Shown one piece after another: positions 15,738 through 38,536 of a stretch of 40,000 nucleotides of DNA (positions within the stretch are counted from its first letter, which is position 1; every line of letters begins with the position of its first letter). Both the position numbers and the translations under genes were made by a program. This DNA is from Nitrococcus mobilis (GTDB lineage Bacteria; Pseudomonadota; Gammaproteobacteria; Nitrococcales; Nitrococcaceae), in the NCBI GenBank assembly GCA_024102725.1, contig JAGFJL010000047.1, positions 1 through 40,000 of the forward strand. Direction: 5' to 3'. The notes under the pieces were generated by a model. The model saw only the letters and a program-made list of their open reading frames with translations, did no database searches and had not been told where the DNA came from.

Positions 15738-15839
15738 GGGTTACCGCTGAATAAATTCTTATTCCCTTGTCATGGGACACTATACATTAAGGTGACCGGC
15801 CGATGACGTATCGTTTTGGGGAAGTTCGCTCGGTACAGT

Positions 15840-16745
15840 TGACCTGCCCCCGCAATTAGGACCGCGTTCCAGTTAGCTCAGTCCGCTCAGTCAACTACCT
15901 CCCAGGGGCAAGATCCCAGGGAGAATTCCTGCCGCCAGTAGGCGGCAAATTCGGCCGGCACCAAATAACCCAGCGCCGAATGCGGTCGCTTTTCATTGTA
16001 ATCACGTCGCTAGGCCGCGATCTCGGCTCGCGCATGGGCGAGACTCGTAAACCAGTGCTCGTTCAAGCACTCATCCCGTATAAGTTGCACTCCCCGCTCA
16101 TAGGCCCATTGGTCGAGTGCCTTACCCGTGAACTCCGGCCCCTGGTCGGTTCGGATCGCTTTGGGCACACCCCGGAACCGTACCGCCCGTTCCAGAGAGC
16201 GCACCACGTAGGCGCCCGGGATGCTGCAATCGACCACAATGTCGAGTGCCTCCTTGGTGAAGTCATCGGGGCGCTCGGCAGCTCCAGAGGTTCACGATTC
16301 ACCGCCACACCCTGGCGCCGCCGACGCTTGCGCACCGCCAAGCCTTGCTGCTGATAGTGGCGCAGCACCTTCTTATGGTTGACCACCACGCCTTCGCGCC
16401 GTAGCAGCGCGTGAATCCGCCGATACCCGAATCGCCGCCGCTGTTGCGCCAGATCCATGATCCGGCCCCGTAGCGCTTCGTCTGAGGCGCTGGACATGGC
16501 CTAATAGCGCAACACTGACCTCGAGATCCCCACAAGCCCGCATGCACTTCGCTCCGAGACGCCGGTGCGCTCGCACATCTCCGCCACCGCCTCACGCTTT
16601 GGCTTGTGGAGTCAGTACTTTCCCGACAGCGCTGCCTTCAGTGCCTCGTTATCGAGCATCGACTCGGCCAGCAACTTCTTCAGCCGGGCGTTCTCCGCCT
16701 CCAACGATTTGAGCCGCCGGCGCAGATTGCGCGGCGGGCCGGTAT
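15840..16745 (-). mobile_element. IS3-family (IS407-group-like) element, 3' two-thirds: orfA C-terminus, decayed orfB, outer inverted repeat
   Basis: The outer end reads TGACCTGCCCCCGCAATTAGG from 15840 inward; IS407-group ends as I recall them start TGACCTGCCCCC. The orfA tail is RRLKSLEAENARLKKLLAESMLDNEALKAALSGKY (16612-16745). Its 5' portion is found separately at 19500-19592. Confidence 0.75.
15891..16611 (-). pseudogene. IS3-family orfB (DDE/rve transposase) pseudogene
   Basis: Reads KREAVAEMCERTGVSERSACGLVGISRSVLRY*AMSSASDEALRGRIMDLAQQRRRFGYRRIHALLRREG, with an in-frame TAG. A frame change and loss of the NQxWxxD...DDFT segment follow near 16260-16290. Then DCSIPGAYVVRSLERAVRFRGVPKAIRTDQGPEFTG and AEIAA*RRDYNEKRPHSALGYLVPAEF, where TAG sits where W is expected. 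Confidence 0.8.
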
Positions 16746-16978
16746 ATCGGAGCAGACGCTGTACCGCTGGCCGGATGGGTTTCTCAGCGCGGGCAAGCAG
16801 GCGATGAACGGCCGTGCCATGCGCAACGAGCAAGCCAAGGCGATCGAACGTCTGCTGGGCGAGCTTGCTGAGCGCAACCAGGTCATCGGCGAGCTCACGG
16901 TCGCTAATCGCATTTTAAAAAACCCCCGAAGGCCGGCGGCCTGCCCGGAGAAAGAGAAACTCGGGCCTGCGCTAGACT
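16735..16978 (+). pseudogene. 5'-truncated HTH transposase orfA fragment of a second element (element X)
   Basis: The + strand reads AQIARRAGISEQTLYRWPDGFLSAGKQAMNG...AIERLLGELAERNQVIGELTVANRILKN. This is an HTH followed by a leucine-zipper-like segment, typical of IS3-like orfA proteins. There is no start codon and no upstream IR. It abuts the antisense IS407-like orfA at about 16740. Confidence 0.55.
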
Positions 16979-17155
16979 GAGCGCACTCCGAGGGGAGCGG
17001 CCGTTGACTTTTTGGTGGACCACCCCGTTTAAAAACGTGGCCCAGGGACTGTAGCGGACCCGATAGTGGTGACGCGCCTGTGCGATCCCGGTTAGGAAAA
17101 TGATCCATTCCGCCATCCCGCCCTTCGGAGGATTTTTGCTCGAAGGAGGACAGTG

Positions 17156-17940
17156 ATGGCCAAGACGAAGCGAGGGCGAGGGGCGGTTCGCACGACGAAC
17201 CTGGCGGTGGTGCATCCGCATGCGGCAGGGCTCGATGTCGGTGCCCGATTCCATGTCGCGGCGGTCGCGCCGGAGCGGGCCGAAGAGCCGGTGAAGAGCT
17301 TTGGGAGTTTCACCGACGATCTGCATGCGCTCGTCTCTTGGCTGCAGGGGGCCGGCGTCACGAGCGTGGCGATGGAATCGACCGGAGTGTACTGGATCCC
17401 GGTCTACGAGATTCTCGAAGCGAAGGGATTCGAAGTGTTCTTGGCCAACGCGCGGGGACGCAAAGGCGGTGCCTGGGCGGAAGAGCGACGTGAACGACGC
17501 GCAGTGGCTCCAGCGGCTGCATCAGTACGGACTGCTGCGCCCGAGCTTCCGGCCGAGCCAGGAGATTGTCGCCCTGCGGGCGTACCTGCGCCATCGCGAG
17601 CGGCTGCTCGATTATGCGGGCGCGCACATCCAGCATATTCAGAAAGCGCTCACGCAGATGAACCTCCAACTTCACCACGTCGTGACCGACATCACCGGTG
17701 CAACGGGCATACGCATCATTCGTGACATCGTGGCCGGAGAGCGTGACCCGCAGCGCCTCGCCCGGCATCGAGATACCCGCTGCAAGGCTTCGCTCGAGAC
17801 CATCACCAAGGCGCTGGTGGGGAACTATCAGCCCGAGCATGTCTTTGCGCTGACCCAGTCTTTGGAGCTCTACGACTTCTACCAGCGGCAGGTCGCAAGC
17901 TGTGATGTGGCCATCGGGCGGGTGATGGCGGGATTGGTGT
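17156..17940 (+). pseudogene. IS110-family (DEDD) transposase, frameshifted and 3'-truncated by IS insertion
   Basis: RBS GAAGGAGGA lies 5 nt before the ATG at 17156. Motifs: AAGLDVGARFHVA, MESTGVYWIPVYEILEAKGFEVFLANAR, then in the next frame DAKAVPGRKSDVNDAQWLQRLHQYGLLRPSF. One extra G in the run at 17454-17457 explains the frame shift. The reading frame ends at the IRL of the IS3 element at 17941. Confidence 0.8.
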
Positions 17941-17990
17941 TGCCCCGATTTGGTGGAGCCTTCAAAGTGCTCAAATGGAGGGCATCCACT

Positions 17991-18332
17991 ATGACGCAAT
18001 CCAAATTTGCTATGCGCTATGCGCTATGCGCTATGCGCTATGCGCCGGAGTTTCGCCAGCAGATGGTCGAGCTGGCGCGCGCCGGTCGCAAGCCCCCGGA
18101 GCTGGCCAAGGAATTCGGCTGTACCGTTTGGTCGATCAAGCGTTGGCTCAAGCAGGCCGAGCGGGATGCTGGCCGCGGCGATGGCGGGCTGACGAGGGCG
18201 GAACGCGAGGAGCTCAGCCGGTTGCGCCGCGAGAATCGCCAGCTGCGCCTTGAGCGGGAAATCCTCTCAAAAGCCGCGGCCTGGTTCGCTCAGGAGACCG
18301 CGCCGAATTCGAAGCGCTCTTCGGGTTCGTGA
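17991..18332 (+). CDS. IS3-family transposase orfA (HTH plus leucine zipper)
   Basis: MTQSKF...YAPEFRQQMVELARAGRKPPELAKEFGCTVWSIKRWLKQAERDAG...REELSRLRRENRQLRLEREILSKAAAWFAQE. A heptamer repeat lies in codons 7-19. Confidence 0.8.
   Translation: MTQSKFAMRYALCAMRYAPEFRQQMVELARAGRKPPELAKEFGCTVWSIKRWLKQAERDAGRGDGGLTRAEREELSRLRRENRQLRLEREILSKAAAWFAQETAPNSKRSSGS
18011..18045 (+). repeat. perfect heptanucleotide tandem repeat (TATGCGC) x5 inside the 5' end of IS3 orfA
   Basis: Direct reading: TATGCGC at 18011, 18018, 18025, 18032 and 18039, preceded by a partial GC. The unit length is not a multiple of 3. Confidence 0.95.
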
Positions 18333-19191
18333 GAGCGAACCGGGCCTGTTATCCGGTGGCGGTGATGTGCCGGGTGCTGAAGGTCTCCGTGAGCGGTTAC
18401 TACGCTTGGCGAAAGCGCCCGCACTCCAGGCAAGCCGCGCAGGACAGGGCGCTGAGCGCCAGGATCGTGGCCATTTACCGCCACTCCGATGGCACCTATG
18501 GGTGTCCACGGATCTACCAGCAGCTGCGCGCCGAGGGCGTGCAGGTGGGACACAACCGCGTCGCACGTCTGATGCGCGTGGCGGGACTGCGCGGGGTGAG
18601 TCGCCGGCGGCGTTTTGTCACGACGACGCAGCGCGCCTCCATGGCGGCGCGTCCGGCACCGGATCTGGTACGACGCGACTTCCGTGCCGAAGCGCCCAAC
18701 CGGCTGTGGGTCGCCGATGTAAGCCATATCCCGACGTGGGAGGGGTTCTTGTATCTGGCGGTCGTTCTCGATGTGTTTAGTCGCCGTATCGTCGGCTGGG
18801 CGATGGCGGGGCACCTGCGCACCGAGCTCGTGCTCGCGGCCTTGGAGATGGCCTTTGCACAGCGTCGTCCCGAGGCCGTCATCCATCATTCGGATCAGGG
18901 TGCGCAATACACCTCGATTGCTTTCGGCCACCGCTGCAAGGCGCTCGGGGTGCGTCCCTCCATGGGTCGGTCGGAGACTGTTTCGACAACGCCATGGCCG
19001 AGAGCTTCTTTGCCAGTCTCGAATGCGAGCTATTGGAAAGGCACCATTTCCGCACCCGCGAGCAAGCGCGCTCGGCCGTGTTCGAATACATCGAAGGTTG
19101 GTACAACCGCCGTCGCTTGCATTCTGGGCTTGGCTATCTGTCACCTTCCACCTTCGAGCGGAGGTACTGTACACAGACAACACCACCTTAG
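18329..19191 (+). pseudogene. IS3-family transposase orfB (rve/DDE), frameshifted
   Basis: The frame is -1 relative to orfA. Motifs: NRLWVADVSHIPTWEGFLYLAVVLDVFSRRIVGWAM and HHSDQGAQYTS. After VRPSMGRS the frame is lost; it should read GDCFDNAMAESFF. The sequence MAESFFASLECELLERHHF...WYNRRRLHSGLGYLSPSTFE continues in another frame. One missing G at about 18973-18975 would restore the frame. Confidence 0.8.
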
Positions 19192-19220
19192 AACTTCCAA
19201 CTCTCCACGAAATCGGGGTA

Positions 19221-19449
19221 AGTCTACATGTTCCGCTCTCGTTACAACGAGATCAGGCCGCACTGGGCGCTCGTGCCGGTTGACGGCGCCGATCCGGTGA
19301 CACCGCAGGCCGTCTACGTTCATGGCCACGCCGTACAACTCCCGAAGTGGCAAGGTTGGGCGAAGGCCGCAAGGGCGAAACTACGCGAGATGATCGACGG
19401 TGCGCACCTGCCGCTGAGTGCTGTTGAGGAAATCGCCGGAGCGTCATGA
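19221..19449 (+). pseudogene. C-terminal fragment of an rve-type (DDE) transposase, probably the 3' end of element X
   Basis: FRSRYNEIRPHWALVPVDGADPVTPQAVYVHG... is the YNxxRPHxAL signature of integrase-core transposases. It begins directly at the IRR of the IS3 element and has no catalytic core upstream. Confidence 0.6.
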
Positions 19450-19499
19450 GCACTCACACAAACCCAGAACGGTCGTGTCCGGTTGATTTCGGAGCCAAG

Positions 19500-19592
19500 A
19501 CATCTTCGGAAAAACGCTTCTTCTTCATGTCCGTCTCCTCGATCAGACGGACTGTACTAACTTTCCGCTGGTCTAGAAATCGGGGGCAGGTA
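19500..19592 (-). mobile_element. detached 5' end of the IS407-like element: terminal IR, RBS hairpin, first ~9 codons of orfA
   Basis: - The reverse complement of 19581-19592 is TACCTGCCCCCG. This matches the TGACCTGCCCCCG end at 15840 apart from one missing base.
- Minus strand: GTCCGTCT-gatcgagg-AGACGGAC, then ATG (19528) AAG AAG AAG CGT TTT TCC GAA GAT, giving MKKKRFSED. This is the usual IS407-group orfA start (MKK(K)RFxEE).
- Homology stops near 19500. Confidence 0.6.
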
Positions 19593-19606
19593 TTTGCTGA
19601 TATAAA

Positions 19607-20668
19607 TCACACGGAGCATAGGCAATTCTCCCGTAGTTGTGCAAGCAACAGTTGTGTTAACTGCATGTAGTCCTTCGGGATGTTCTGAATATCATTCCAT
19701 GGTCGAGTGAGCCCACTACCAAATTCCCAGACCCCTCTGGTCCAGGCCGTATGCGGCTCCAAGCATTTCAGGTAAGGGGTGAATTCCTCTTCGTTAAATG
19801 CGCCAATACGTGCGTGGAGGTACTCCATGACATAGCCCATACTAATTATCCCAGCGCCATGAACAAGCCGGGAGGTTTTAGGCTTGTGGCCTTTCCATGC
19901 ATAATCGTAGACGTTTTGCACAGCAGCAAAGAAATTGCTGATCAACCGCAACCCCTTTTCGAAACCGTCTTCGTCGCGAGAGAACTCTCGTAGAGCCCCG
20001 TCGGAAGCAGAGTTCATGATTACTCTTTGGATTACAGTGTCCTGAATAATACCTTGTGGGTTGGTGTGTTGCTTAATTTGACCGCGCAGCGATGACGCAT
20101 CGCTATAATTCAAGTATTCAACCATTGCGGCCGCCGCCGCGCGAGATCCCAGACGGTCTGGTAGGTCAGTGACCCCCGGAAGGAGCTCATAAATAAGTTG
20201 CTTCGGTAAAGGTCGTGTGTTGTTAATCAAGATGAACTGCTTCCGAAGTTCATCTTGATCTCTGCACAGCAAAGCGGAAACCACCAGTTGAAATTTTGTT
20301 TCGATGTCCATTAACGCGGACAAACGCTGCTGTCCGTCAACGACAAATCCAGCCGCGTCGTCCAGGTCGACTGTCAGGGTCGCAACATCGATGGCTCCTT
20401 GCTTTATCAGCTTCGCGCCACGTGTGAAAGCCACAACCACAGAATTTGGCAAGAGAGCCTCGCGCCTCGACAGGTACTCGCGAATTTCCTTAATGTGACT
20501 TGCGACCTGCGGGCGCTGGAAGCCACTAAGATGACCTTTCTCATCGCGGCCAACCCGATCTATTTTTGCAAAGCGCAGTATCTCGCCCGCAGTAGCGCAA
20601 AAGCAGCAGACTTGTACGGAGTCACCCTGGTTAGGAACCAGTGCTGTATAGCGCAGGATATTGGCCAT
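19607..20668 (-). CDS. DGQHR-domain (DndB/DpdB-like) protein, copy downstream of dpdA
   Basis: Motif blocks: RDEKGHLSGFQRPQVASHIKEIREYL, LLPNSVVVAF, VVDGQQRLSAL (the DGQHR signature with Q in place of H), FILINNTRPLPKQLIYELLPGV, SRLVHGAGIISMGYVM, GVWEF and WNDIQNIPK. It is collinear with the protein at 21947-23140. Confidence 0.8.
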   Translation of the reverse strand: MANILRYTALVPNQGDSVQVCCFCATAGEILRFAKIDRVGRDEKGHLSGFQRPQVASHIKEIREYLSRREALLPNSVVVAFTRGAKLIKQGAIDVATLTVDLDDAAGFVVDGQQRLSALMDIETKFQLVVSALLCRDQDELRKQFILINNTRPLPKQLIYELLPGVTDLPDRLGSRAAAAAMVEYLNYSDASSLRGQIKQHTNPQGIIQDTVIQRVIMNSASDGALREFSRDEDGFEKGLRLISNFFAAVQNVYDYAWKGHKPKTSRLVHGAGIISMGYVMEYLHARIGAFNEEEFTPYLKCLEPHTAWTRGVWEFGSGLTRPWNDIQNIPKDYMQLTQLLLAQLRENCLCSV

Positions 20669-21950
20669 TAGCGAGGACCTGCTTGAGGTATTTGTGAAAA
20701 ACGTAGAGATTATGAATTCCGCGGCGCTTGTTCCGGTTGCTTGAACGGAACAGTATCGTCTCGACGCCTGCCTGACGGCAGACGTTGCATTCGCACCTCT
20801 CCCACTGTCGTGCCTCCAAAGTCCTCTGGTACTGCACTCGTGCTTTTGTCAGCTTCGCGTCAACAGTGGCGCGACTGGAATTGCTGCCGTCAAGCAGTGG
20901 CTCTATGTAGCGCAAAACCGCCTCCAGGGTTGGACTGAGACTCATTTCCCTTGAGGCATAGGCTCTAACTGAGGTGAGAGCGTCGGTTTCCAGTTCGAGC
21001 AAGTGCTCCAACCGTCTGCGACCTGACCTAACCTGCCGTTGAAGAACAAGATTCTCGTGCACCTGCGGCACCCGCACCGCGCTGTAATACTCCATCTCCC
21101 CGTGCGCATTTAGAAAATAGTAGTTTCTTGAACCATCCTTAAAGGCCCGGATGAGAGGAGAACTGGTGTCGAAGCTATCGATTCGATATGGGGCAAACTC
21201 GCTGAGTTGGTCCGCCTTCGCAAACCCAAGCAGGTGCAGGGACACATTCGGGTATCGCCCCACCACGTTCATCACAGCGCCTAGCGCCAGGTGGATGCTC
21301 TTGGTATTAAGAGGAGCCAATCCGCCGACTGCGATGTAGCGATATCCCATATGCACAAGGCGGCGCGCTGCTTCCGCCATACTGCCCGGCGACCAACCTT
21401 GAACAACGCCGATTGGCTGGAACGTCGCATGGTGCCTGCGGTGCTCAAGCAAAAATGACTCAGCCAATTCGAGGGTCAAATCAAACCGTCGGTGAGCTTC
21501 CGGTGTGCCGCCGGCAAGGCCGGCTACGCTATGGCGTTCGAAATCGAAAACTATGTGGTCAACGGAGAAACCGTGAGTGAATCCTGCCTCTTCGTAGAAT
21601 GCAACCGTATCTTCGGGCGTGTATGGTGGATGTTCGAGGCTAGCGTATGAGAAGGCACCACAGTCTCCAAAAATTGGTATGTCTTGGAACCGAGGGTCCT
21701 CAAGACGTAGAAAACGGCGTGCTCCAACCCGGCGAAAACGCATCGCTTGGGATTCAGTATACTTACCCTTTATCACATGGTCGCCAACCGTTGTTCTTGA
21801 AACTAGGACTCCGTCGTAAGGCAAGCGGTTATGTAATTCGTGGGGGTAAACATCGTCCCAATACGGTTTGCGACCAGGTGCGTTCTCATCGTTGATGAAG
21901 TCGTAGTTTGGGTCGACGTAGTCTAAACTATCCGCGAAAATAAATTTCAC
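20631..21950 (-). CDS. dpdA: DpdA, DNA-targeting tRNA-guanine-transglycosylase-like enzyme (7-deazaguanine DNA modification)
   Basis: - N-terminus MKFIFADSLDYVDPNYDF.
- FGDCGAFSY aligns with the TGT DSGGFQ active-site motif.
- TGT-type zinc site CECNVC...(23 aa)...H, near the C-terminus.
- GTG start overlaps the upstream DGQHR stop (GTGA).
- Flanked by DGQHR genes, with queC/E/D nearby. Confidence 0.85.
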   Translation of the reverse strand: MKFIFADSLDYVDPNYDFINDENAPGRKPYWDDVYPHELHNRLPYDGVLVSRTTVGDHVIKGKYTESQAMRFRRVGARRFLRLEDPRFQDIPIFGDCGAFSYASLEHPPYTPEDTVAFYEEAGFTHGFSVDHIVFDFERHSVAGLAGGTPEAHRRFDLTLELAESFLLEHRRHHATFQPIGVVQGWSPGSMAEAARRLVHMGYRYIAVGGLAPLNTKSIHLALGAVMNVVGRYPNVSLHLLGFAKADQLSEFAPYRIDSFDTSSPLIRAFKDGSRNYYFLNAHGEMEYYSAVRVPQVHENLVLQRQVRSGRRRLEHLLELETDALTSVRAYASREMSLSPTLEAVLRYIEPLLDGSNSSRATVDAKLTKARVQYQRTLEARQWERCECNVCRQAGVETILFRSSNRNKRRGIHNLYVFHKYLKQVLANGQYPALYSTGS

Positions 21951-23140
21951 GCACGCTCCCGTTTTGACGCTTCGTAGTCTAGCTTAATAAGTTGTTCTGA
22001 TAGTGCTTTCACATGTTTGCTAACGTTTTGTATTTGGTTCCATTCCATTCCCAAGTCTTCCCACACGCCGCTGATCCAGCAGCATTTCGGCTCGATACGC
22101 TTGAGCGCGAATCGTATCTCCCTTTCCTGATCGTCGCTTCCTTGAGTTCGCACGATAATGCGGTCCATTAGGGTGCCCATTGCCTTGATGCCAGCCGAGT
22201 GAGTTAAGCGACTGTGGGACGGGGGCAGAGCCCACGCCTCTAGAAACGTATCTCGCACGGCAGACCAGTACGTGAGCAGTGTGTTATACATAGCCGTTGT
22301 ATCGGTGCGCCCCTCACCAACTCCTTTGAATTGAGCGAGTGCGCCTAACGGGCTACCGATGCTGCGCCGGATAACATCGATTAAGGCCGTGTCGACGATG
22401 AAATGATCAGTCGTACCGTGGCCGTCGGTCGATGCACGGCGAATACGCTCGTAGAACGGTGAACGGGGGTCGCGATTCAGTATGTTGCACAACTCGCTAG
22501 GGAGTCGGCGAACTGCCAAGTCCCTAGGCAGATGGGTATCCACCTCAGGCAGGAGTTCGTTAATCAGTCGCGTTGGCAGCGGTTTGGCCTTGTTGACAAG
22601 AATGAACTGCTCACGCTGAGTCTCAAGATCGCCAGCAATAAATGCTACGACCGGCACCGGGAGACCGGTAGATTTACTCTTTGATAGCGCGAGCGAGCGC
22701 TGCTGCCCGTCTACGATCCAAGCAACACGGGTACCCTCCTCTCGAAGTGGAATCATCAAGGTACCGGCATGAGCGATGGGGTTAAGTCCATCCGGTTCCC
22801 GCCCCCGTGTCTGTTTAAATTCCACTTCCGGCGAGAGCGCCAAGATGATGGCGTTCGGGAACAAGACGTCGCCCGCGTCGAGATATTCAACTATGTTGTT
22901 GACGTGATTACGTATCTCTTTGCGCTGGAAGCCCTGTAACGAGGTTTTCTCGTCCCGATGGATGCGGCTGATATCTGCAATACGGACGATGTCCTCACCG
23001 GGCATGAAGAAGGCGAAGACTTCTATGCCCCTACCTTGACTCGTCCGAAGGGCACGAACGATGAGCGTGTCTTCGCCGTTTACCACGAGCGTGCCTTCTT
23101 CACTTCCCGAAACAACCGGGCAAAGCGCCCTTGTTCGCAA
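21947..23140 (-). CDS. dpdB: DGQHR-domain protein, DpdB-like, copy upstream of and translationally coupled to dpdA
   Basis: Motif blocks: RDEKTSLQGFQRKEIRNHVNNIVEYL, LFPNAIILAL, IVDGQQRSLAL, FILVNKAKPLPTRLINELLPEV, SRLTHSAGIKAMGTLM, GVWED and WNQIQNVSK. The start is ambiguous: ATG at 23140, or GTG at 23086, which overlaps the upstream TAA. I cannot decide which of the two DGQHR genes is the DpdB orthologue. Confidence 0.8.
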   Translation of the reverse strand: MRTRALCPVVSGSEEGTLVVNGEDTLIVRALRTSQGRGIEVFAFFMPGEDIVRIADISRIHRDEKTSLQGFQRKEIRNHVNNIVEYLDAGDVLFPNAIILALSPEVEFKQTRGREPDGLNPIAHAGTLMIPLREEGTRVAWIVDGQQRSLALSKSKSTGLPVPVVAFIAGDLETQREQFILVNKAKPLPTRLINELLPEVDTHLPRDLAVRRLPSELCNILNRDPRSPFYERIRRASTDGHGTTDHFIVDTALIDVIRRSIGSPLGALAQFKGVGEGRTDTTAMYNTLLTYWSAVRDTFLEAWALPPSHSRLTHSAGIKAMGTLMDRIIVRTQGSDDQEREIRFALKRIEPKCCWISGVWEDLGMEWNQIQNVSKHVKALSEQLIKLDYEASKRERA

Positions 23141-24063
23141 GCAACGCCCTCGCGATCCCGCAATAGACGCAGCATCTGAGAACTCGCACCGCCCGCATCA
23201 TGCCAGAATTTTTGAATTAGCCTGCGGACGTCTTCATCCCTAACTCGGTTTCGCCTGATCGCGTCCGGTGGGCGCATCTCCTCAAGCACTGCTGCAACCG
23301 AACTTGCGTGCACTGAAGCCGGGGCGTCGGGATCCCGAGACCAGATTTCCTCTACGAAATGCCGCGCCGCCCTTGGTGCGAAGTCCGTGCGGGTACCTGG
23401 TAATGGACTATCTGGACCATCAAACCGGCCGTCGTATGGCATAGTTACATTAATAAGCTCGGCAGGAATTAACCGACTTCCACTAATAACTCGCAGACGT
23501 TGCACGCACCAGCCCGGTAATGTTGCCAACTCCTCGTGGACTAACCCCAGGTATCTGCCAGACAACGCCACTACGACGGTCGCGGCGCTGTGGTCATGAA
23601 GCAGTCGCCGCAAGGGTTTAGGCCGTCCACGAACTTGGTTGATTTCATGCCACCAAAGACCAAGTTGCCAGCAGCCGGATCCCGACTGGGATCGATACTC
23701 AGCCAAATCGGCAAGTGTAAAGTCATAGGGCGGTACGCGGTCATCCGGTTCGATTAGCCCGAGGCCGGCAGATACCACATAGCAAGGGGCCTCGAATTTT
23801 TCTGCCGTTGATTGCGCCTCTTTGAATCCGCGGCCGCAATAAAGCTCCTTCGCTATTACATGCTGTAAGTGGCCCTGCGCCGCGGACCACCATTCCATCG
23901 CAAAGCGCCGCATCGAACCATTTACCCTATCCGGCGCGCTGAGACATGTACCCACGCCTCGCCGCTTGCGGTTTGTGCAGTTCGTAACCAGCACCAGCCT
24001 GAAGGACCTATCTAGAGAGTTATTGACCACAAACCTGTTGCTTCGCGTGAATAAACGTAGCAC
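23080..24063 (-). CDS. uncharacterised 327-aa protein, first gene of the dpd operon; DpdC candidate by position only
   Basis: GTG start at 24063. Conserved-looking N-terminal pattern: LVLVTNCTNRKR ... ELYCGRGFKEA ... YVVSAGLGLIEPDDRVPPYDFT. Co-directional with and overlapping the DGQHR gene. I do not recognise the family with certainty. Confidence 0.5.
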   Translation of the reverse strand: MLRLFTRSNRFVVNNSLDRSFRLVLVTNCTNRKRRGVGTCLSAPDRVNGSMRRFAMEWWSAAQGHLQHVIAKELYCGRGFKEAQSTAEKFEAPCYVVSAGLGLIEPDDRVPPYDFTLADLAEYRSQSGSGCWQLGLWWHEINQVRGRPKPLRRLLHDHSAATVVVALSGRYLGLVHEELATLPGWCVQRLRVISGSRLIPAELINVTMPYDGRFDGPDSPLPGTRTDFAPRAARHFVEEIWSRDPDAPASVHASSVAAVLEEMRPPDAIRRNRVRDEDVRRLIQKFWHDAGGASSQMLRLLRDREGVACEQGRFARLFREVKKARSW

Positions 24064-24168
24064 AACATACTATGCATGGTCCGCATTAATTGCACGCTCT
24101 TAGTAGTCTACTCTTATACATTATTGTAGGCTGATGGTATGAGACCTGCTGTCAAAGGAGGTCGACTA
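24064..24168. promoter_or_regulatory. AT-rich divergent intergenic region between the dpd operon and queC-queE-queD
   Basis: A 105-bp gap between divergent starts, locally AT-rich (ATACTATGCATGG, TTAATTGCA, TATACATTATTGTAGG). A strong RBS AAAGGAGG lies 7 nt before the queC ATG at 24169. No specific -35/-10 pair could be assigned with confidence. Confidence 0.35.
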
Positions 24169-24435
24169 ATGAGCCATGCTGAAGGCGGGGCCTTGGTCCT
24201 ATTTTCGGGTGGGCAGGACTCGACCACCTGCCTCGCTTGGGCGCTTGATCGGTTTCAGCATATCGAAACCGTGGGTTACACGTACGGTCAGCGCCATGAG
24301 GTAGAGATGCATGCCGTACCTGTTACCTGGGCGAGCGCTGCTATCGCCATGATTGGGGCTACGGCTGTGAGGAGTGCCCAGCGTGCCAACTGCGGGCCAA
24401 GGGCTGGCGGGGCGCTACCAGGCGGCAAAACATGA
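24169..24435 (+). pseudogene. queC: queC (7-cyano-7-deazaguanine synthase) remnant with a large internal deletion
   Basis: - The N-terminus [39 protein letters not shown] carries the SGGxDS PP-loop and the YGQRH motif.
- About 50 codons later, and in a different frame (from 24321), comes the QueC C-terminal zinc motif [29 protein letters not shown].
- Only about 270 nt are present where about 690 nt are expected. Confidence 0.85.
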
Positions 24436-25065
24436 CCTACAGCGTCAAGCATATCTTCTACACGTTGCAAGCCGAGGGTGCGCAGACAGGCCGGCCAGTG
24501 GTGTTCTGCCGATTCGCGGGGTGCAATCTCTGGTCGGGGCTGGAACGGGGTCGCGCGAATGCGCGGTGCCGGTTCTGCGATACCGATTTCGTCGGCACCG
24601 ATGGTGCCGGTGGCGGCAAATTCGATACAGCCGAATCGTTGGCCGCTGCGGTCGCGCCATGCTGGTCGCCGGGCAATGGGCCCGCGCTATGCAGTTTGCA
24701 GCGCTGGCGAACCGCTGCTGCAACTCGACCGCCCGCTGATCGATGCGCTGCACGCCGAAGGATTAGATGTGGCGATTGAAACCAATGGCATTCTGCCCGT
24801 ACCACCGAGTATGGACTGGGTGTGCGTCAGCCCCAAGGCACCCAATGCCCTTATGGTTGAATCCGGCGACGAACTCAAGGTGGTTTATCCGCAGCCAGGC
24901 CCCGAAATGGACCGCCTCGCACACCTCCCATTCCGTTACCGCTTTGTGCAGACGATGGATGGTCAACACATCGTCGAGAATACGAGAGCGGCGCTTGAGT
25001 TCTGTCTCGCAAACCCTGTTTCGCGGCTGGGCCTCCAAACTCACAAGCAACTCGGAATCGAATGA
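24432..25065 (+). pseudogene. queE: queE (7-carboxy-7-deazaguanine synthase, radical SAM), frameshifted
   Basis: - N-terminal frame: [58 protein letters not shown]. This is the Burkholderia-type CX14CX2C cluster motif.
- After ...WSPGNGP the homology continues in another frame: [35 protein letters not shown]...LGLQTHKQLGIE.
- A single-base indel at about 24681-24687 explains the shift. Confidence 0.85.
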
Positions 25066-25607
25066 GCGCCTTCAGCATCTCCCGCCGACTCGAGATCGAC
25101 GCCGCTCATCGGATTGCGGGTCACGGTTCCAAGTGCCGATACCTGCACGGCCACCGGTATGTCATCGAGGCTTGCTGTATCAGCGCCTCGCTGCACACAA
25201 ACGGCGCTAAGCGGGGGATGGTGTTGGACTTTGGGTTTCTCAAAGAAGAGATGGCACGCACGATTGATGAGCCCTGCGATCACGGCTTGCTGGTGAGCGT
25301 GGACGATCAGGAACTTCTGGCGATGCTTGCTCCGGTCGGGCGAGCTGATGCGTGGGTTACTGAGCTCGAGCGGGAGGTTCGGCGAGCGGGGCACTGCTCC
25401 GCCATCGATGGGCGTCTCGGCGGGCTGATCTATGTGCTGGATGCACCGCCGACCGCCGAGGTACTCGCACAGCACTGGTTCCAACAGCTAAAGCCCCGAG
25501 TAAATGAGCGCAGTAGCGGTCAAGCACATTTAACGGCGGTTACCGTTTGGGAAACGCCGAATTGCTGGGCTCGGTACGAAGGGCCGGAGGTGGTCCGACA
25601 CAAGTAA
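25062..25607 (+). CDS. queD: QueD, 6-carboxy-5,6,7,8-tetrahydropterin synthase (PTPS family)
   Basis: The start overlaps the queE stop (ATGA). Motifs: FSISRRLEIDAAHRI, KCRYLHGHRY (the CxxxHGH zinc/catalytic motif) and GMVLDFGFLK. The 181-aa ORF is intact. Confidence 0.85.
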   Translation: MSAFSISRRLEIDAAHRIAGHGSKCRYLHGHRYVIEACCISASLHTNGAKRGMVLDFGFLKEEMARTIDEPCDHGLLVSVDDQELLAMLAPVGRADAWVTELEREVRRAGHCSAIDGRLGGLIYVLDAPPTAEVLAQHWFQQLKPRVNERSSGQAHLTAVTVWETPNCWARYEGPEVVRHK

Positions 25608-26028
25608 GGTTAAGCGGATCGCCGTCGCAGTGGACCCCTTTTCTTTATGGGGCTGTCTCTAGCCGGTATTTGTCAACGTAGCCGTGAATCGACCCACCAT
25701 AGCTCGTTCGGATTCAGCACGTGGCTGGCAATTTCCAGCTGATAGGCATCCCGCTCAATGACGATGGCCGGCCACTTCTCGACGGGGCAGGGAGTACGGC
25801 CAGCGCCCCGGTGAGCCGGGCAATCCCTGAAGTTATCCTGTGATGGTTGCCCTCCTTGATCTGATAGCCTGCTCTCTATGCCTTTCCGTCATTCCGGCGT
25901 AAGCGGGACCAAATTCCGTAGGGAACGGATTTGAACTGCCAGAGCTGGACCCCAGCGACTGGACAGGGATCGAAGCCTGCTAAGTGGAATCTTCTGGCTT
26001 AAAGTTCTCGAAAGAGAAGGAGCGGAAG

Positions 26029-31593: not shown

Positions 31594-32100
31594 TCACTTA
31601 CGATACACGCAGGTGTCAGCTATGGCTTCCGGAACCGCGGCGATGCCGCCGTGCGACTTGATGTATGCCCAGTCCTTTGCCGACATAGGTGCTCCGGCGT
31701 CGCAGTAGGTCAGCCATGCTGAGGCAATGGGCGCATCCTCAACCCCACCCTGATCTGATCCGTCTATGGCCTGTTCAGGCTGTGCACCCTCGTTCTGACT
31801 GCTGTGTACTGGCGACACGCCAGCCGTTTGCGGTCGGCGCACCCGCGCCGACGGTCCGAGTTCACGCCGCCGCCCACTAAGCGCATGGCGGTAATTACCC
31901 ACCCGGGCGACGACTGTGTGGGGGTCGAGGTCTATCCACTCGACTCGCGCATACAGGTCGCGTCGGCCACTCTCCAGCGCTCGCATCGGCTTGACAACAA
32001 CCTCTTCCGGTACCTCGGGCTGCGCCGCGCAGCCGGTGAGAACGGACAGCGCGTTTGCGGCGATAGCGAGTGCGGCGAGGTAGCGGGTATGGCAAGTCAT
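31594..32100 (-). CDS. lipoprotein (hypothetical), divergent from traI
   Basis: Signal peptide plus lipobox: MTCHTRYLAALAIAANALSVLTGC. 168 aa. Confidence 0.65.
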   Translation of the reverse strand: MTCHTRYLAALAIAANALSVLTGCAAQPEVPEEVVVKPMRALESGRRDLYARVEWIDLDPHTVVARVGNYRHALSGRRRELGPSARVRRPQTAGVSPVHSSQNEGAQPEQAIDGSDQGGVEDAPIASAWLTYCDAGAPMSAKDWAYIKSHGGIAAVPEAIADTCVYRK

Positions 32101-32233
32101 GATCCTGGCTCCAGCGATGCAAGGTGATCAGGCCATGCTAGCCAAGCCAACGGATCACTTGGCCAGGAAACACCCCTTCGTATGGTCACGGTTTGCACGC
32201 CCGTGCCGACGCTCGCCGGGGCACCATGGGTGC

Positions 32234-34675
32234 ATGCTGAGGCAGCTTCTCTCCCTCCGGCTCCGCCGCCCCGTCCTGATTGACGAGGAGGACACGCCGC
32301 GTTATCCGCCGTTTATGCGCGGACTGCCGGCCAGCTCGGTGGACAAGCTGCTCACCAGTCAGGACGAGCTCATTGGCCGATTGCGGCAGGCCGTCGGCGT
32401 CTCCGACAGGCTCTTCAATGGCGTGTACCAACCGCTGATTCGGCGCTACGCGGCTTACGTCCACCTCCTGCCGGCAAGTGAGGCGCATCATCATCGCGGT
32501 GCCGGCGGGCTGTTGCGTCACGGCTTGGAGGTAGCGCTGTGGGCGGTGCAGGGCGCCGATCGGGTGATGTTCGCAATGGGCGAGACGCCGGCCCGGCGCC
32601 GCGAGCTGGAGCCGCGCTGGCGTTGCGGGGTGTTTCTTGCCGCGCTAGCGCATGATCTCGGCAAGCCGCTCTCCGATGTGCGGATTATAGATGAGAGCGG
32701 TCGCCACGAGTGGGGCGGGCAGGGTGAGGATCTGGCCGAGTGGCTCGGTCGCATCGGCGCCCGACGCTACTTCCTCCAATGGCGCACCCGGCGCCACCAG
32801 CGCCACGAATCGCTCACGCCGCTCGTACTGCCGCACATCATCCCGCGAGCCACCTTGGACTACCTCCAGACCGCCGGCCCCGAACTCTATGAGCAGATTC
32901 TGTTCTCGATCAGCTCGCGCGACTTCCAGGCTCGCGACCAGGAGCACAACCTAATCTTTAAGCTGGTGCGCGAGGCCGATCAGCACAGCACGCGCAAGGA
33001 CATCGGCGATCCGGTGGCGGCGGGGCTGCCGGGTGCGCTCGGCGTGCCGCTGGAGCGCTACCTGATGGATGCCATGCGCCGGCTCGTGCGCGAGCGGCGG
33101 TGGCTGTGCAATCAGCCGGGTGCACGGCTGTGGGTAATCGCCGACAGTCTGTTCGTAGTCTGGCCCGCCGGCGCCGACGACATCGTGCGCGCGCTCGCCA
33201 GGGACAAGGCGCCCGGCATCCCGCGCCACCCCGACAGCCTTGCCGATGTGCTGCTCGACCGGGGACTCGCGGTCGCCTTCGAGGAGACCGGCCAGCGTGC
33301 ACGGATGTGGCCGATCCAGCCTGCACCCCTGCGTGAACGCAATCCCGGCGTAGTGCTGCATGCCTTGCGGCTCGATGCCAATGCCGGCGTATTCGACGAG
33401 CGACCGGCGTCGGTCGAGGGCCGCCTGGGCATTGATCTGCTGGACGACGTATCACCGGCGGCCACCGAGTCCCGGACCGACGCCCAGGAGGCGCCAACCA
33501 GCGAGCAGGACAATGTGTCGCACCCGTACGCTGGCGCGGGTGACCTGGAGGAACCAAACCCGGCGGAAGCCGAGACCGCCGGTGCCGCGTCGGGGTCGGG
33601 CGAACGGCATAACGACGAGCAATCGCCGACGAACGAGCTAGGCAGCTTGCAGCGCGTAGCACACATGCCATCCACGCGAGAGTCCGAGTCGGGCATCGAC
33701 AGGCCGAGCCCGACCAACCGCCGGAGACGGCCCGGCAGCACGGGCCCCGCGCAAACTTCCGACTGGGCACCCGAGCCTGGCCACAGCCCGCCAACAGGGA
33801 GCAACGCCAATGAAGCAACTCGATCGAGCACCGCAGCCCGGCGGCCCGAAGCGCCCACTAAAGCGCCGTCAGAAGTGGCCGCCGGATCGCAATCGGCACG
33901 CCAGAGCCCCGCGGAGCAAGCCCGAGACGCCGCGGACGCCCGGGACTGGTTCGCCCGCCGCGGGCACGCCGGAGCGATAATCGGAGCGCTTGCCGAGGAC
34001 TTCGCCGACGGCGCCAAACGTTGGGGCGAGCATGGCGTGTACATGCGCGATGGCGCCGTCGCCATCCGCCACCCGGAGGGATGGGCCGGCGCGGGCGTGG
34101 CTGGAAAAGAGATACTGCCGCTGCTCGTCGAAGCCGGCTGGGTGGCGATCGATCCGTTTCAGCCGATGAAGAAGGTCCGCGAGGTCGAAGGCTTTACCGG
34201 GCTAAAGGGCGCGAGCCGGCAATCAGCGCTGGTGCTTATCGACGAAGTGAGCGCCAGGGTTATTGAGATTGCCGGGGCCACCGCTGCTCCGTCTGCCACA
34301 GCCGCGCGAACACGGCCGACAGGCCCGGCGCCGACCAAGGCCCGGACGTTTCCCGCGACTTCCGCGAGCAAGGGGAGGGCGCCGCGTGCGGCAAGCAGCC
34401 GTCCGGCGCGTGTTGAGCCGCTCACCAGTGATGCCGTGTTGGCGGCACTTCATGACCTGATAGAGGCGGACGTCCCGAGCCTGGCACATCGGCGTGACGG
34501 CGAGCGTCTGCGCATTCCTTATGCCGAGGCCGTTACGGCGATAGCCTTGCGGCTCGGCCTCTCGCGCTCCAAGGCGATGCAGGCGCTAAGCGGTCTGCGC
34601 GCCGGCGAGGGTGAGCGTGAGATTGTCATCCCGGCTCGCCGAGCACGGCGAGCGCGCCCGCCTACGGACGGGTGA
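32234..34675 (+). CDS. traI: MobH-family relaxase TraI (HD-domain relaxase of SXT/R391-type ICEs)
   Basis: LLPASEAHHHRGAGGLLRHGLEVALWAV and LAALAHDLGKPLSDV are the MobH HD-type metal site. A long Pro/Ser/Ala-rich disordered linker occupies about aa 430-620 of the ORF. I take the start at MLRQLLSL (ATG at 32234), not at 32099, which would overlap the divergent lipoprotein gene. Confidence 0.8.
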   Translation: MLRQLLSLRLRRPVLIDEEDTPRYPPFMRGLPASSVDKLLTSQDELIGRLRQAVGVSDRLFNGVYQPLIRRYAAYVHLLPASEAHHHRGAGGLLRHGLEVALWAVQGADRVMFAMGETPARRRELEPRWRCGVFLAALAHDLGKPLSDVRIIDESGRHEWGGQGEDLAEWLGRIGARRYFLQWRTRRHQRHESLTPLVLPHIIPRATLDYLQTAGPELYEQILFSISSRDFQARDQEHNLIFKLVREADQHSTRKDIGDPVAAGLPGALGVPLERYLMDAMRRLVRERRWLCNQPGARLWVIADSLFVVWPAGADDIVRALARDKAPGIPRHPDSLADVLLDRGLAVAFEETGQRARMWPIQPAPLRERNPGVVLHALRLDANAGVFDERPASVEGRLGIDLLDDVSPAATESRTDAQEAPTSEQDNVSHPYAGAGDLEEPNPAEAETAGAASGSGERHNDEQSPTNELGSLQRVAHMPSTRESESGIDRPSPTNRRRRPGSTGPAQTSDWAPEPGHSPPTGSNANEATRSSTAARRPEAPTKAPSEVAAGSQSARQSPAEQARDAADARDWFARRGHAGAIIGALAEDFADGAKRWGEHGVYMRDGAVAIRHPEGWAGAGVAGKEILPLLVEAGWVAIDPFQPMKKVREVEGFTGLKGASRQSALVLIDEVSARVIEIAGATAAPSATAARTRPTGPAPTKARTFPATSASKGRAPRAASSRPARVEPLTSDAVLAALHDLIEADVPSLAHRRDGERLRIPYAEAVTAIALRLGLSRSKAMQALSGLRAGEGEREIVIPARRARRARPPTDG

Positions 34676-34786
34676 TGCCGGACTCGCTCGGGAACACTCC
34701 GTCTGGCGTCGGCCGTTTCGCCCCTTGCACGTATGTGGCATTCCCTAGACTGGTGCCTCAAGTGAGAAAACACCACTGGAGCACCC

Positions 34787-36652
34787 GTGAGCACCGCGAC
34801 CCAACGCTACGAGTTTCCCTGGCGTCCCAACTACGAACGCATCAGCGCGCTTGGCTGGGCGGCGGGCACGGTCGCCAGCGCCGCCATCTGGGCGCACGCA
34901 ACGCTGCCGACAGCGCCGTTCGCGTTGATGACCAGTCTCGGCGCGGTGATGTGCATCCTGCGCGCCGGGCAGGCGCTGCGTCAGAGCCACCGCTTCGCCC
35001 AGCTGCGGAACACTAAAGCTTTGACGATCACTCGTGCCAAGCTGCAACGCATTCTGGCTCGCCGTCTTGAACGGCTCCGGCCAGGGCGCGGTCTCGCTCG
35101 CCACCGCGATATTGTCTGGTTAGGACGCGGCTTTAACTGGCGCGCCGAGCACGCCCAGCTCGCCCACGAGGTCCGCCAGGCGGGCCTTGAATCAAATCTC
35201 AAGTCGGTGCGTGACGAGAACGATCCGTACAAGGTGGGCGCCCACTGGATACACGGGCTGGCCCGCGAGAAGCCGGTCGAGGCGCCGCTTGGTATCCTCT
35301 CCGGTCAAACGCTGATCGTCGGCACCACTGGCGCCGGCAAAACGCGCGCGTTCGAGACGTTGATCACTCAGGCGGTGCTGCGCGGCGAGCCCGTAATCGT
35401 GCTCGACCCCAAGGGTGATAAGGATCTCTGCGAGACGATGCGCCGTGCCTACGAGCACGTGGGTCAGGCCGGAAAGTTCGTTTACTTCCACCCCGCGCAT
35501 CCGGAAACCAGCGCGCGCATCGACCCGCTGCACAACTGGAACCGACCCACCGAGCTGGCTTCGCGGATCGCCGCAATCATCGCCTCCGAGGGCAGCATGG
35601 ACCCGTTCGTGGCGTTCTCCTGGAAGGCACTGAACGATGTGGTCCAGGGGCTGCTGGCGATCGACTCGCGCCCGAACCTCGTCTCGCTGCGCCAGTACAT
35701 CGAAGGCGGGGTGGAGACGCTAGTTGCCGAGGCGCTGCGACGCTTTCTGGACGAGCACGACGAGGGCTGGGCGGAGGGCATTCGCTCGCGTTTGGGCAAG
35801 GTGCGACAGCGCGGTGGCGAGACGAGTGTGATCGTTGACTACTACAAGGAGCGCACCCACGGCTCGCGCCCGGCCATTACGCCCTCGCAGGCGCTCAACG
35901 GTCTGGTGGGCTCCTACGAGCATAACCGCGAGCACTTCCAGAAGATGATCGCCACCTTGGTGCCCACGATGTCGATGCTCACCAGCGGCGATCTCACCGG
36001 CCTTCTCTCGCCGGCACCGGACCCGGACGATCCGCGTCCGATCACGAACATGACCAAGATCATCAATGCGGGGCAGGGCGCCTACGTCGGCCTCGACTCG
36101 CTGGCCGACTCGACGGTGGCGAGCGCCATCGGCTCGATTCTGATGGCTGATCTCACCGCGGTCGCCGCCGACCGCTACAACTACGGTGTCTCCGATGTCG
36201 GCATCAACGTCTACCTGGACGAGGCCGCCGAGGTCATCAACCAGCCGACCATCATGCTGTTGAACAAGGGTCGCGGCGGCAAGTTTTGCCTGACCATCGC
36301 CACGCAGACTTTCGCCGACTTCGCGGCCCGCCTCGGCAACGAAGCCAAGGCGCGTCAGGTGCTGGGCAACACCAACAACCTGATCGCGTTGCGCACTATT
36401 GATGCGGAGACACAGAAATACGTGGAAGAACAGCTCGACGAGGTGGCTCTGACCACCCTCTCGCGCGACTACCGCACCTCCGCGGGCGTCGACGAGCCGA
36501 CCGCCTTCGACGGCGCCTACTCGGAGTCCATCAAGTCGGAGACCGGTGCGCTGTTCGCCGCGAGCATGCTGGGCAAGCTGCCCAACATGCACTACCTGGC
36601 ACGGCTGACCGGCGGGCGCATCGTCAAGGGGCGCTTCCCGATACTGCAATAG
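34787..36652 (+). CDS. traD: type IV coupling protein TraD (SXT/TOL-type)
   Basis: GTG start with GGAG 5 nt upstream. N-terminus YEFPWRPNYE, followed by two TM segments. Walker A LIVGTTGAGKTRAFE. Walker B VYLDEAAEV. Confidence 0.85.
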   Translation: MSTATQRYEFPWRPNYERISALGWAAGTVASAAIWAHATLPTAPFALMTSLGAVMCILRAGQALRQSHRFAQLRNTKALTITRAKLQRILARRLERLRPGRGLARHRDIVWLGRGFNWRAEHAQLAHEVRQAGLESNLKSVRDENDPYKVGAHWIHGLAREKPVEAPLGILSGQTLIVGTTGAGKTRAFETLITQAVLRGEPVIVLDPKGDKDLCETMRRAYEHVGQAGKFVYFHPAHPETSARIDPLHNWNRPTELASRIAAIIASEGSMDPFVAFSWKALNDVVQGLLAIDSRPNLVSLRQYIEGGVETLVAEALRRFLDEHDEGWAEGIRSRLGKVRQRGGETSVIVDYYKERTHGSRPAITPSQALNGLVGSYEHNREHFQKMIATLVPTMSMLTSGDLTGLLSPAPDPDDPRPITNMTKIINAGQGAYVGLDSLADSTVASAIGSILMADLTAVAADRYNYGVSDVGINVYLDEAAEVINQPTIMLLNKGRGGKFCLTIATQTFADFAARLGNEAKARQVLGNTNNLIALRTIDAETQKYVEEQLDEVALTTLSRDYRTSAGVDEPTAFDGAYSESIKSETGALFAASMLGKLPNMHYLARLTGGRIVKGRFPILQ

Positions 36653-36662
36653 AGATGCTCCC

Positions 36663-37208
36663 ATGAGGCGACAGACCAATTCCGAGCTCACCCTGTCCGC
36701 GGCCGCTCGCCACGCCGCCCGTCGCGCTCGCGTGCTCACGCGCCACCATCATCTGCTCACGACCTGCCCGCCGGCCGCCGCGGTCATCAACCGGGTGGCC
36801 GGTTGCCTGGGCGAGGAGCTGTGCCCGCCGGGTGAAGGCGAACCGCTGCTGGTGCGCTGCTGGAGGCTTGGCGCCCGGCGTCTGCGCGCCGCTGAGCGCA
36901 GGCCCGGCACCAACGACCCCGGCTACCTTGTTATCGCACTTCAAACTGTGCTGACTCCGCTCGATGCGGCGCTGAGGCTTCGCGTCGCCGCGCCCGATGG
37001 CGCTATCTGGGTGCCTGAGGACGAGCGGTGCTGGGAGTACTGGCGAGAACGTCACCCCGGAGCGCTTCAGTTTACTGCCTGCGAGCCGGTCGATCCGGAT
37101 GCCCACAACGAGCGCCTCGTGCGGCTCGAACGCTGGGCGCTCGGCCCGCGGTTCACGCACAGCATCAAGGCAACGGCGGGATGGCCCAACGTCACGGCCA
37201 CGGAATAG
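36663..37208 (+). CDS. hypothetical protein between traD and the traJ-like gene
   Basis: 181-aa ORF starting 10 nt after the traD stop and overlapping the next gene by 28 nt. The C-terminal half (GYLVIALQTVLTPLDAALRLRV...WVPEDERCWEYWRERHPGALQF) looks protein-like. The N-terminal third is Arg/Ala-rich and could be a high-GC artefact. Confidence 0.45.
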   Translation: MRRQTNSELTLSAAARHAARRARVLTRHHHLLTTCPPAAAVINRVAGCLGEELCPPGEGEPLLVRCWRLGARRLRAAERRPGTNDPGYLVIALQTVLTPLDAALRLRVAAPDGAIWVPEDERCWEYWRERHPGALQFTACEPVDPDAHNERLVRLERWALGPRFTHSIKATAGWPNVTATE

Positions 37209-37813
37209 CGGTTGGTCTCTTTATCACCGGCGCGATCGTTATCGAGCTGGCGGTGCTTCTGCTGTTCGTGCCCAGTGCGCGGGTTGCTCAATACAATGCC
37301 AACGAGCGCGCGGCCGTGGCCGCCGATCTGGGGCTGAGTGCCGAAGCCCGCGTGCGAGCAAACGCGAAAACCTGGTACCGGGTGACACTGATCGAGCCTG
37401 GGTTTGTCGCCGCGCTAAATGAATATCTGTTCCAGGCCGGATCGCCGAAGTCAGTGACCGACTACAGCGCGACGAACTATGTGCGCGACCGCCTCGCTAC
37501 GTTCTGGCGCTCGATCTATGCGGTCTACTACCGCCTCGCGCTCATCTGGCTGTGGGTCCCCTATCTGCTCCCCCTCATCCTCCCGACGCTGATCGATGCC
37601 GTCCAGGCGCGGCGCGTGCGCCAGTGGCGCTTCAGCTATGTCTCACCGCTCATACGCGCGCTGGCCACGAAGACGAAGTGGCTGATCGCCACTACGCTCG
37701 GCGCGGCGCTGTTGCTCCCGCTGCACGTGCCGGCGCTAGCCTACCCTTTTCTGTTCGGTGTGCTGATGCTGGCGAACTGGGTGTGGGTGGCGAACTTGCA
37801 GAAGAGGATTTAG
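37181..37813 (+). CDS. ICE membrane protein, DUF4400 / TraJ(s043)-like
   Basis: I take the start at MAQRHGHGIAVGLFITGAIVIELAVLLLFVP. Four predicted TM segments. Its position between traD and traL matches s043/traJ of SXT. Confidence 0.65.
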   Translation: MAQRHGHGIAVGLFITGAIVIELAVLLLFVPSARVAQYNANERAAVAADLGLSAEARVRANAKTWYRVTLIEPGFVAALNEYLFQAGSPKSVTDYSATNYVRDRLATFWRSIYAVYYRLALIWLWVPYLLPLILPTLIDAVQARRVRQWRFSYVSPLIRALATKTKWLIATTLGAALLLPLHVPALAYPFLFGVLMLANWVWVANLQKRI

Positions 37814-38253
37814 GAACTAGGGCGCCGTCGAACGCGCCATAATAGCCGTTCCGCTACGCCGGGCCTTGAGCCAGCGAAGAGAGGGCAGTGCCGACTTCGC
37901 CCAGAGTTTCCCGTCACGCAAGCAGGCGCTGATTGCCGCTGTCTGTCAGAGCCCTGCCGAGCTCGAATATGTGAGCTGGGTGGGACGCATCATGATTATC
38001 TACGAGTTGCCGCTCCCCGATGCGGCCGATGCGCGCGATCAATCAGGCCGCGCTGCGCTGCCCGGCTAGCGTGCGCTCGGTGCGCGATCCGTGTTCAGCA
38101 TGACGCCGGCCTGCATAGCATACGGCCCTCGAGTCCCAAAACCCCGCACCAGCACCGCCGTGTTTCGGCCCTTATACCGGGTGGGCACGCGTGATACTGG
38201 CTCGCACCGCCTATTCGACCGCCACCGGAGGCAGGCCCGTGAGCCAGCAGGAC

Positions 38254-38526
38254 ATGCCATTGCCCAGAACCCTCGATGATCCGCCTCAGCTCATTCTCTG
38301 GAGCGCCGACGAGCTGATACCGCTCATGAGCTGTATCGGCATCGGCATTCTCACCGCGCATTTCTTCCTCATGCTTGCGGTAGGCATCGTGCTCTGGCGG
38401 TTGTTGCGCCGCTACAAGGATAGCCGCCCGGACGGCTATCTGCTGCACATGGTCTACTGGACCGGCCTGCCTATCGGAAAGTCGCGGGTGTTCCCGAACC
38501 CGTTTCGCCGCCACTGGCACGGGTGA
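38254..38526 (+). CDS. traL: TraL, F-type T4SS protein
   Basis: MPLPRTLDDPPQLILWSADELIPLMSCIGIGILTAHFF, i.e. the TraL LDDPP..l.w..dE motif plus a TM segment. An alternative GTG start at 38239 has GGAGG 7 nt upstream. Confidence 0.8.
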   Translation: MPLPRTLDDPPQLILWSADELIPLMSCIGIGILTAHFFLMLAVGIVLWRLLRRYKDSRPDGYLLHMVYWTGLPIGKSRVFPNPFRRHWHG

Positions 38527-38536
38527 GGGGGTAGCC

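Follow-up and report, generated by a model that had tools for sequence, protein, structure and literature searches.

Decayed queC and queE genes in a Dpd island of Nitrococcus mobilis, whose DNA modification probably relies on preQ0 made by the host

The stretch of Nitrococcus mobilis DNA analysed here (40,000 nt, hereafter the window) carries a Dpd island, i.e., an island for 7-deazaguanine DNA modification and restriction, which encloses the remains of its own queC, queE and queD genes. The queC gene has lost most of its coding sequence and queE is split between two reading frames, whereas queD is intact. It seems probable that these island-borne queC and queE were spare copies that decayed under relaxed selection, and that Dpd modification now uses preQ0 produced by the host.

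The Dpd island and its surroundings

The window covers the initial 40 kb of contig C46 (41,993 nt), which belongs to a draft genome (3.25 Mb, 185 contigs, 96% completeness, 60.7% G+C). The gene series dpdC-dpdB-dpdA-dpdB, on the minus strand, is divergent from queC-queE-queD on the plus strand (Table 1). Upstream, the island also includes dpdF, truncated by the beginning of the contig, as well as dpdG, dpdH and genes for a DpdJ-like helicase of 2144 aa and a RecB-like nuclease. Insertion-sequence debris is found at 15.8-19.6 kb. The other flank (25.9-28.3 kb) likewise contains pseudogene and insertion-sequence debris, including IS3-family remains downstream of the que genes; the one ORF downstream of these genes that was scanned for protein families matched none. 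The region 32099-40000 encodes a TraI_2 relaxase/helicase, a TraD coupling protein, a DUF4400 protein, TraE and TraK. The presence of these conjugation genes beside the Dpd genes indicates that the island is cargo of a conjugative element.

Table 1. Positions in the window of the que features and of the adjacent dpd genes
Feature	Position	Strand	Evidence and remarks
second dpdB paralogue	19607..20668	-	NF041060 369.6 bits; equivalent position in L088, L089, G003
dpdA, DNA transglycosylase inserting preQ0	20631..21950	-	NF041059 505 bits, cut-off 200
dpdB	21947..23140	-	NF041060 455.5 bits, cut-off 300
dpdC-like gene (DUF6884)	23080..24063	-	DUF6884 40.9 bits (cut-off 30); divergent from queC
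queC remnant ORF, 88 aa	24169..24435	+	profile matches; exact product also called on Logan contig L058
native queC N-terminus, 47 codons, frame 1	24169..24309	+	SGGQDS ATP-binding loop, YGQRH; alignment with 7 intact relatives
queC deletion junction, 8 nt (CATGCCGT)	24310..24317	+	relatives have 453 nt here
native queC C-terminus, zinc-binding tail, frame 3	24318..24431	+	TCYLGER...GCEECPAC...KGW; PF06508 positions 182-208
queE 5' half, 82 codons, frame 3	24432..24677	+	Cx14CxxC cluster motif; TIGR04508 positions 1-80 (24438-24677)
queE frameshift site GGGCCCG	24678..24684	+	frame 3 to frame 1; both Logan runs identical here
queE 3' half, 128 codons + stop, frame 1	24679..25065	+	TIGR04508 positions 81-208 (24679-25062)
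queD, intact, 181 aa, long-form 6-carboxytetrahydropterin synthase	25062..25607	+	PF01242; exact product on two Logan contigs

In Salmonella enterica serovar Montevideo, DpdA and DpdB insert preQ0 into DNA, which DpdC then converts to ADG (PMC10164549, PMC5699537). The same modification module is recognizable in the window, where DpdA and both DpdB copies score above the equivalog cut-offs of their NCBIfam models, the DpdB copies matching NF041060 over the full model length, and where a dpdC-like gene of the DUF6884 family is adjacent. Unlike the Montevideo system, however, the island encodes two paralogous DpdB proteins as well as a variant helicase-nuclease pair and retains queC-queE-queD remnants, and it is located on a conjugative element. 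No GTP cyclohydrolase gene was found on the island within the window, so that the first step of preQ0 synthesis would depend on the host. The search for a riboswitch or another RNA around the que operon gave nothing credible.

Lesions of queC and queE

The queC gene is preceded by a ribosome-binding site (AAGGAGG, 24155-24161) and begins as a normal queC. Its N-terminal part matches positions 1-42 of TIGR00364 (2.7e-14) and positions 2-46 of PF06508 (3.2e-14), but the match to the full-length QueC model stops there, with a score of 53.2 bits for a curated cut-off of 150.3. As proposed by the first-pass annotation, the sequence retains both the SGGQDS loop with YGQRH and the Cys zinc motif of the C-terminus (C..C..CPAC), but these ends lie in different frames. 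Seven intact relatives, aligned with the window, have a segment between ..VEM and TCY.. that is entirely absent from it. The distance between these two points is 453 nt in five intact relatives versus 8 nt in the window, corresponding to a net deficit of 445 nt, or some 148 codons and one further nucleotide. An identical 445-nt gap appears in the split DNA matches with three genomes. Thus, 267 nt are left of about 712, close to the earlier estimate of some 270 out of 690. A search of metagenome contigs for an exact 30-nt pattern adjoining the junction returned no match.

This deletion is not the only lesion of queC. Among 23 relatives, 19 have an overlap, ATGA or GTGA, between the stop of queC and the start of queE. 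The window retains an ATGA at 24432-24435 but its TGA is in frame 1, whereas the conserved queC tail is in frame 3. Furthermore, the spacer between GGCTGG and ATGA has 24 nt in the window versus 20 or 23 nt in relatives. Together, the out-of-register stop and the longer spacer indicate a second shift, of 1 nt, within the queC tail. The lesions sum to a multiple of three, which leaves the 88-aa remnant ORF ending at the native stop. A junction within 24305-24320 had been announced, and this location holds; the single lesion that it implied does not, since at least two frame-changing lesions are needed. On the alignments, queC is therefore to be considered as a true pseudogene with at least two such lesions.

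The queE gene has undergone a different type of damage. TIGR04508 would be expected to match a single ORF of some 210 aa with more than 240 bits; it recovers instead two pieces in two frames, split at model position 80|81 and scoring 127.9 and 159.6 bits. These halves correspond to residues 17-98 and 99-226 of the QueE of a related island (L088, see below), without loss of any residue. They are also collinear with chain residues 21-101 and 105-229 of the QueE of Burkholderia multivorans (PDB 4NJG, Cx14CxxC type, TIGR04508), as the first-pass annotation had suggested. Both proteins have the Cx14CxxC motif, but the reading frame is broken in the window. The frame switch, initially placed at 24681-24687, overlaps the mapped site: both frames read Gly-Pro over GGGCCCG, so that the shift consists of one extra base (or two missing ones) within this run. 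Beyond this run, frame 3 is out of register and stays open until the stop codon at 24777-24779.

Besides the frameshift, the queE sequence carries substitutions where relatives do not vary. Of the 67 positions at which 27 relatives are all identical, seven are changed in the window, while leave-one-out comparisons among the relatives give 0-3 changes, mostly 0. The changes are TLQGEG to TLQAEG, TGGEP to SAGEP (two positions), GF to GL, NGT to NGI, QPMDG to QTMDG and WRL to SRL, and six of the seven fall in the 3' half. The native residue is found at all seven sites in the Dpd-island copy of another genome of the genus (G003) as well as in the L088 QueE. Compared with 4NJG, the window has TLQAEG, SAGEP, QTMDG and SRLG in place of TLQGEG, TGGEP, QPMDG and WRLS. 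These changes at invariant sites suggest that the decay is old, and point to a long-running process rather than to one recent event. With a value of 0.87, the overall divergence of QueE relative to QueD is high, yet it lies within the range of relatives (0.68-0.99) and is no outlier; the reading of an old decay is thus drawn from the invariant sites only. From its sequence, queE also is a true pseudogene.

One could suspect that errors of assembly or sequencing created the lesions in genes that are really intact, as the queE frameshift lies within a short G/C run and the genome is a fragmented draft. This is extremely improbable. Two run-specific Logan assemblies, made by an assembler other than that of the window, reproduce the sequence exactly: contig L058 (SRR13799155) is 100% identical to window 23147-24978 and spans both lesions, and contig L056 (SRR13799154) is 100% identical to window 24337-25746 and spans the queE frameshift. 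Moreover, a 445-nt loss, a separate shift in the tail and seven changes of invariant residues do not form an error pattern. As a side remark, L056 begins at 24337, some 20 nt downstream of the queC junction, while L058 passes straight through it; the break of L056 could be due to low coverage or to a graph branch (second allele).

Nor is it likely that the broken genes work in a non-standard way, through a programmed queE frameshift, a QueE made of two pieces or an ancestral QueC-QueE fusion; we regard this as highly improbable too. Some features would fit such a possibility. An in-frame ATG (24676) opens the queE 3' half exactly at the shift. The queC tail and queE share a reading frame that, as noticed earlier, stays open up to the queE ATG at 24432. 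In addition, a database protein (P0122) covers a QueC tail joined to a QueE head. However, a functional protein is difficult to reconcile with seven substitutions within motifs that do not vary among relatives, such as TGGEP, which has become SAGEP, or with a queC deprived of about 148 core codons. The open frame between queC and queE results from the extra 1-nt shift in the tail and gives no evidence of a fusion. The ancestral fusion was rejected since the contig that encodes P0122 has numerous chopped genes and looks error-prone, and since the 19 relatives mentioned above have an overlap, not a fusion.

In contrast to its two neighbours, queD is preserved, in agreement with the first-pass annotation. 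Its start overlaps the queE stop (ATGA, 25062-25065) and its product, a single ORF, scores 107.4 bits with PF01242 (cut-off 22.4). The score with TIGR03367 (69.5 bits) is under the cut-off of 89.25 owing to some 50 inserted residues that are common to all long-form relatives. AAH, CRYLHGH, CDH and WET, which we take to be the zinc/catalytic motifs, are all legible. The best match among 5.8 billion proteins has 66% identity. None of 36 invariant positions is changed in QueD versus 10 of 105 in QueE and the QueC fragments, a difference that is suggestive only (one-sided Fisher p ~0.05). Hence queD may remain under selection, even though its translational coupling with queE would be broken, ribosomes in the shifted frame being expected to stop at 24777-24779.

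Related islands and the preQ0 supply of the host

No homologue of DpdA was detected in 400 sampled genomes of the same class, and the relatives of this protein were therefore taken from a protein database. None of the collections searched contains a near-identical intact copy of the island (best DNA match of 70% identity, 40 related genomes). The first 31 relatives of the que genes (Ectothiorhodospiraceae, Rhodospirillales and others) have no dpd gene near queC-queE-queD within flanks of up to 8 kb and served as sequence yardsticks only. Side inspection of a 275-kb metagenome contig (L086, ENA contig_39911) showed nadB, queC and queE among many genes split into pieces; this contig looks like an error-prone long-read assembly, which yields false fusion proteins in databases.

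The comparison with relatives proposed at the outset shows intact queC, queE and queD in three related Dpd islands. The Logan contig L088 (SRR25400229_33416) encodes the closest DpdA (62% identity) and has the same gene order as the window, queD-queE-queC being divergent from dpdC-dpdB-dpdA-dpdB. Identities with the window reach 71% for DpdB, 64% for the second DpdB, 59% for QueD and 46% for the dpdC-like protein. All que genes of L088 are intact (queD, 173 aa; queE, 226 aa; queC, 236 aa), whereas queC and queE are broken in the window. After its second dpdB, the island L089 has intact queE, queD and queC and a second queD. The third island, on contig C100 of G003, carries dpdC-dpdB-dpdA-dpdB followed by dpdF, dpdG, dpdH and dpdJ. 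It has its own queC (199.9 bits), queD and Cx14CxxC-type queE (353 bits), in addition to a separate housekeeping queC. Its que genes are all intact but, unlike those of the window, are ordered queC-queD-queE, and its proteins are merely 39-62% identical to those of the window. Judging from these comparisons, island-borne que genes recur in related islands with two DpdB, among which the window is a decayed exception.

The form of QueD itself varies between these islands. Two differing QueD-type genes (125 aa and 179 aa) flank queC in L089 (12395-14655), and the QueD of G003 is a 389-aa tandem form; QueD dosage and form thus differ widely across related Dpd islands.

The restriction part of the island raises the question of DpdD, which is present in about 90% of genomes with dpdA (PMC5699537). 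The gene for DpdD lies after the second dpdB or after the que genes in L088 (6845-9085) and L089 (14779-17031). L088 goes on with DpdD, a PLD nuclease and DpdJ, whereas a pile of insertion sequences (15738-19606) occupies in the window the place where L088 and L089 have DpdD. No match to NF041061 was obtained in the 96%-complete draft, in a search whose control had no positive genome and with an island truncated in dpdF where the contig begins. The gene for DpdD may have disappeared through insertion-sequence-mediated rearrangement or may be on an unassembled piece.

Looking for intact queC, queE and folE elsewhere in the genome, as the first-pass annotation had advised, led to intact housekeeping genes, on contigs that are linked to that of the island by binning only in this 185-contig draft. 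Contig C15 carries a ybgF-like gene (named by sequence), then a queE (222 aa) and a queC (244 aa). The housekeeping QueE is of the TIGR04349 type (363.8 bits, cut-off 300), and the housekeeping QueC scores 192.7 bits (cut-off 150.3). Contig C38 carries a housekeeping queD (102 bits), folE2 (330 bits) and tgt (519.6 bits), and contig C143 the housekeeping queF. The genome search revealed folE2 but no type I folE. Orthologues of the housekeeping QueC sharing 79-89% identity are present in all four other genomes of the genus, which indicates that this gene is native. On gene content, the host would be able to supply preQ0.

Fate of the modification and significance

The state of DpdA is quite distinct from that of QueE. 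Compared with 119 relatives, none of 79 invariant positions is changed in DpdA, and only one of 123 near-invariant positions, which equals the median among the relatives themselves. That DpdA and DpdB are intact in contrast to QueE speaks for continued selection on the modification module, and a module under selection requires a source of preQ0. We infer that the host pool would be feeding DpdA and that the DNA would still be modified. Two consequences of the que lesions had been envisaged, i.e., a dependence on housekeeping genes or a loss of modification; the former is better supported, by the intact host que genes and the undecayed DpdA.

The most probable sequence of events would be as follows. 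The Dpd island, carried as cargo by a conjugative element, would have brought its own queC-queE-queD operon into a host making preQ0 for queuosine-tRNA through its own folE2, queD, queE and queC. As the host pathway is present, queC and queE of the island would be redundant and hence would have decayed, queC by the net 445-nt loss and the 1-nt shift in its tail, queE by the 1-nt frameshift and the substitutions at seven invariant sites. DpdA, DpdB and DpdC would most likely still insert preQ0 into DNA and convert it to its amide form (ADG). In this view, queC and queE represent an ordinary case of gene loss, in an insertion-sequence-rich cargo region of a conjugative element.

It could also be considered that the whole Dpd system is dead or dying, the que lesions being part of a general decay of the cargo that leaves the DNA unmodified and the restriction half inactive or incomplete. 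The dense pseudogenes and insertion-sequence debris on both sides, the absence from the assembly of a detected DpdD, which the related islands L088 and L089 have, and the truncation of dpdF by the contig start are consistent with such a decay. However, it would hardly account for a DpdA unchanged at its invariant positions, for two full-length DpdB above the cut-off, or for ORFs of 2144, 1102 and 765 aa that are still open while adjoining neutral sequence gained indels; the preQ0 genes of the host also argue against it. We consider this general decay unlikely, and reliance of a living modification module on host preQ0 as the probable situation. The preserved queD leads to a further proposal, that it was selectively kept after the death of queC and queE because it pulls H2NTP from the folate branch into the host 7-deazaguanine pathway and thereby raises preQ0. 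This proposal is doubtful. If it were true, a Dpd island in a queuosine-proficient host would need queD alone.

Previous work on dpd clusters is in line with a supply by the host. The preQ0 genes are found in only some dpd clusters, of which they are an optional component (PMC5699537), and salvage of host precursors is expected in some cases (PMC5699537, PMC10164549). In the same way, phages that carry dpdA only, e.g., mycobacteriophage Orion, were proposed to salvage host precursors for a DpdA-type modification (PMC5699537), as would the island of the window. Unlike in these phages, the dependence would be secondary here, through the decay of genes that were once carried, and the element is conjugative.

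The decay of queC and queE in this island fits the published view that preQ0 genes are optional in dpd clusters. An annotation of the island should record these two genes as pseudogenes and should not rate the island as self-sufficient for preQ0. More generally, the window would provide a natural example of a mobile Dpd island that sheds its precursor genes after entry into a host that makes preQ0. It is also a natural pointer that host preQ0 may suffice for Dpd, and offers a simple test of the supply of DpdA-type modification by the host.
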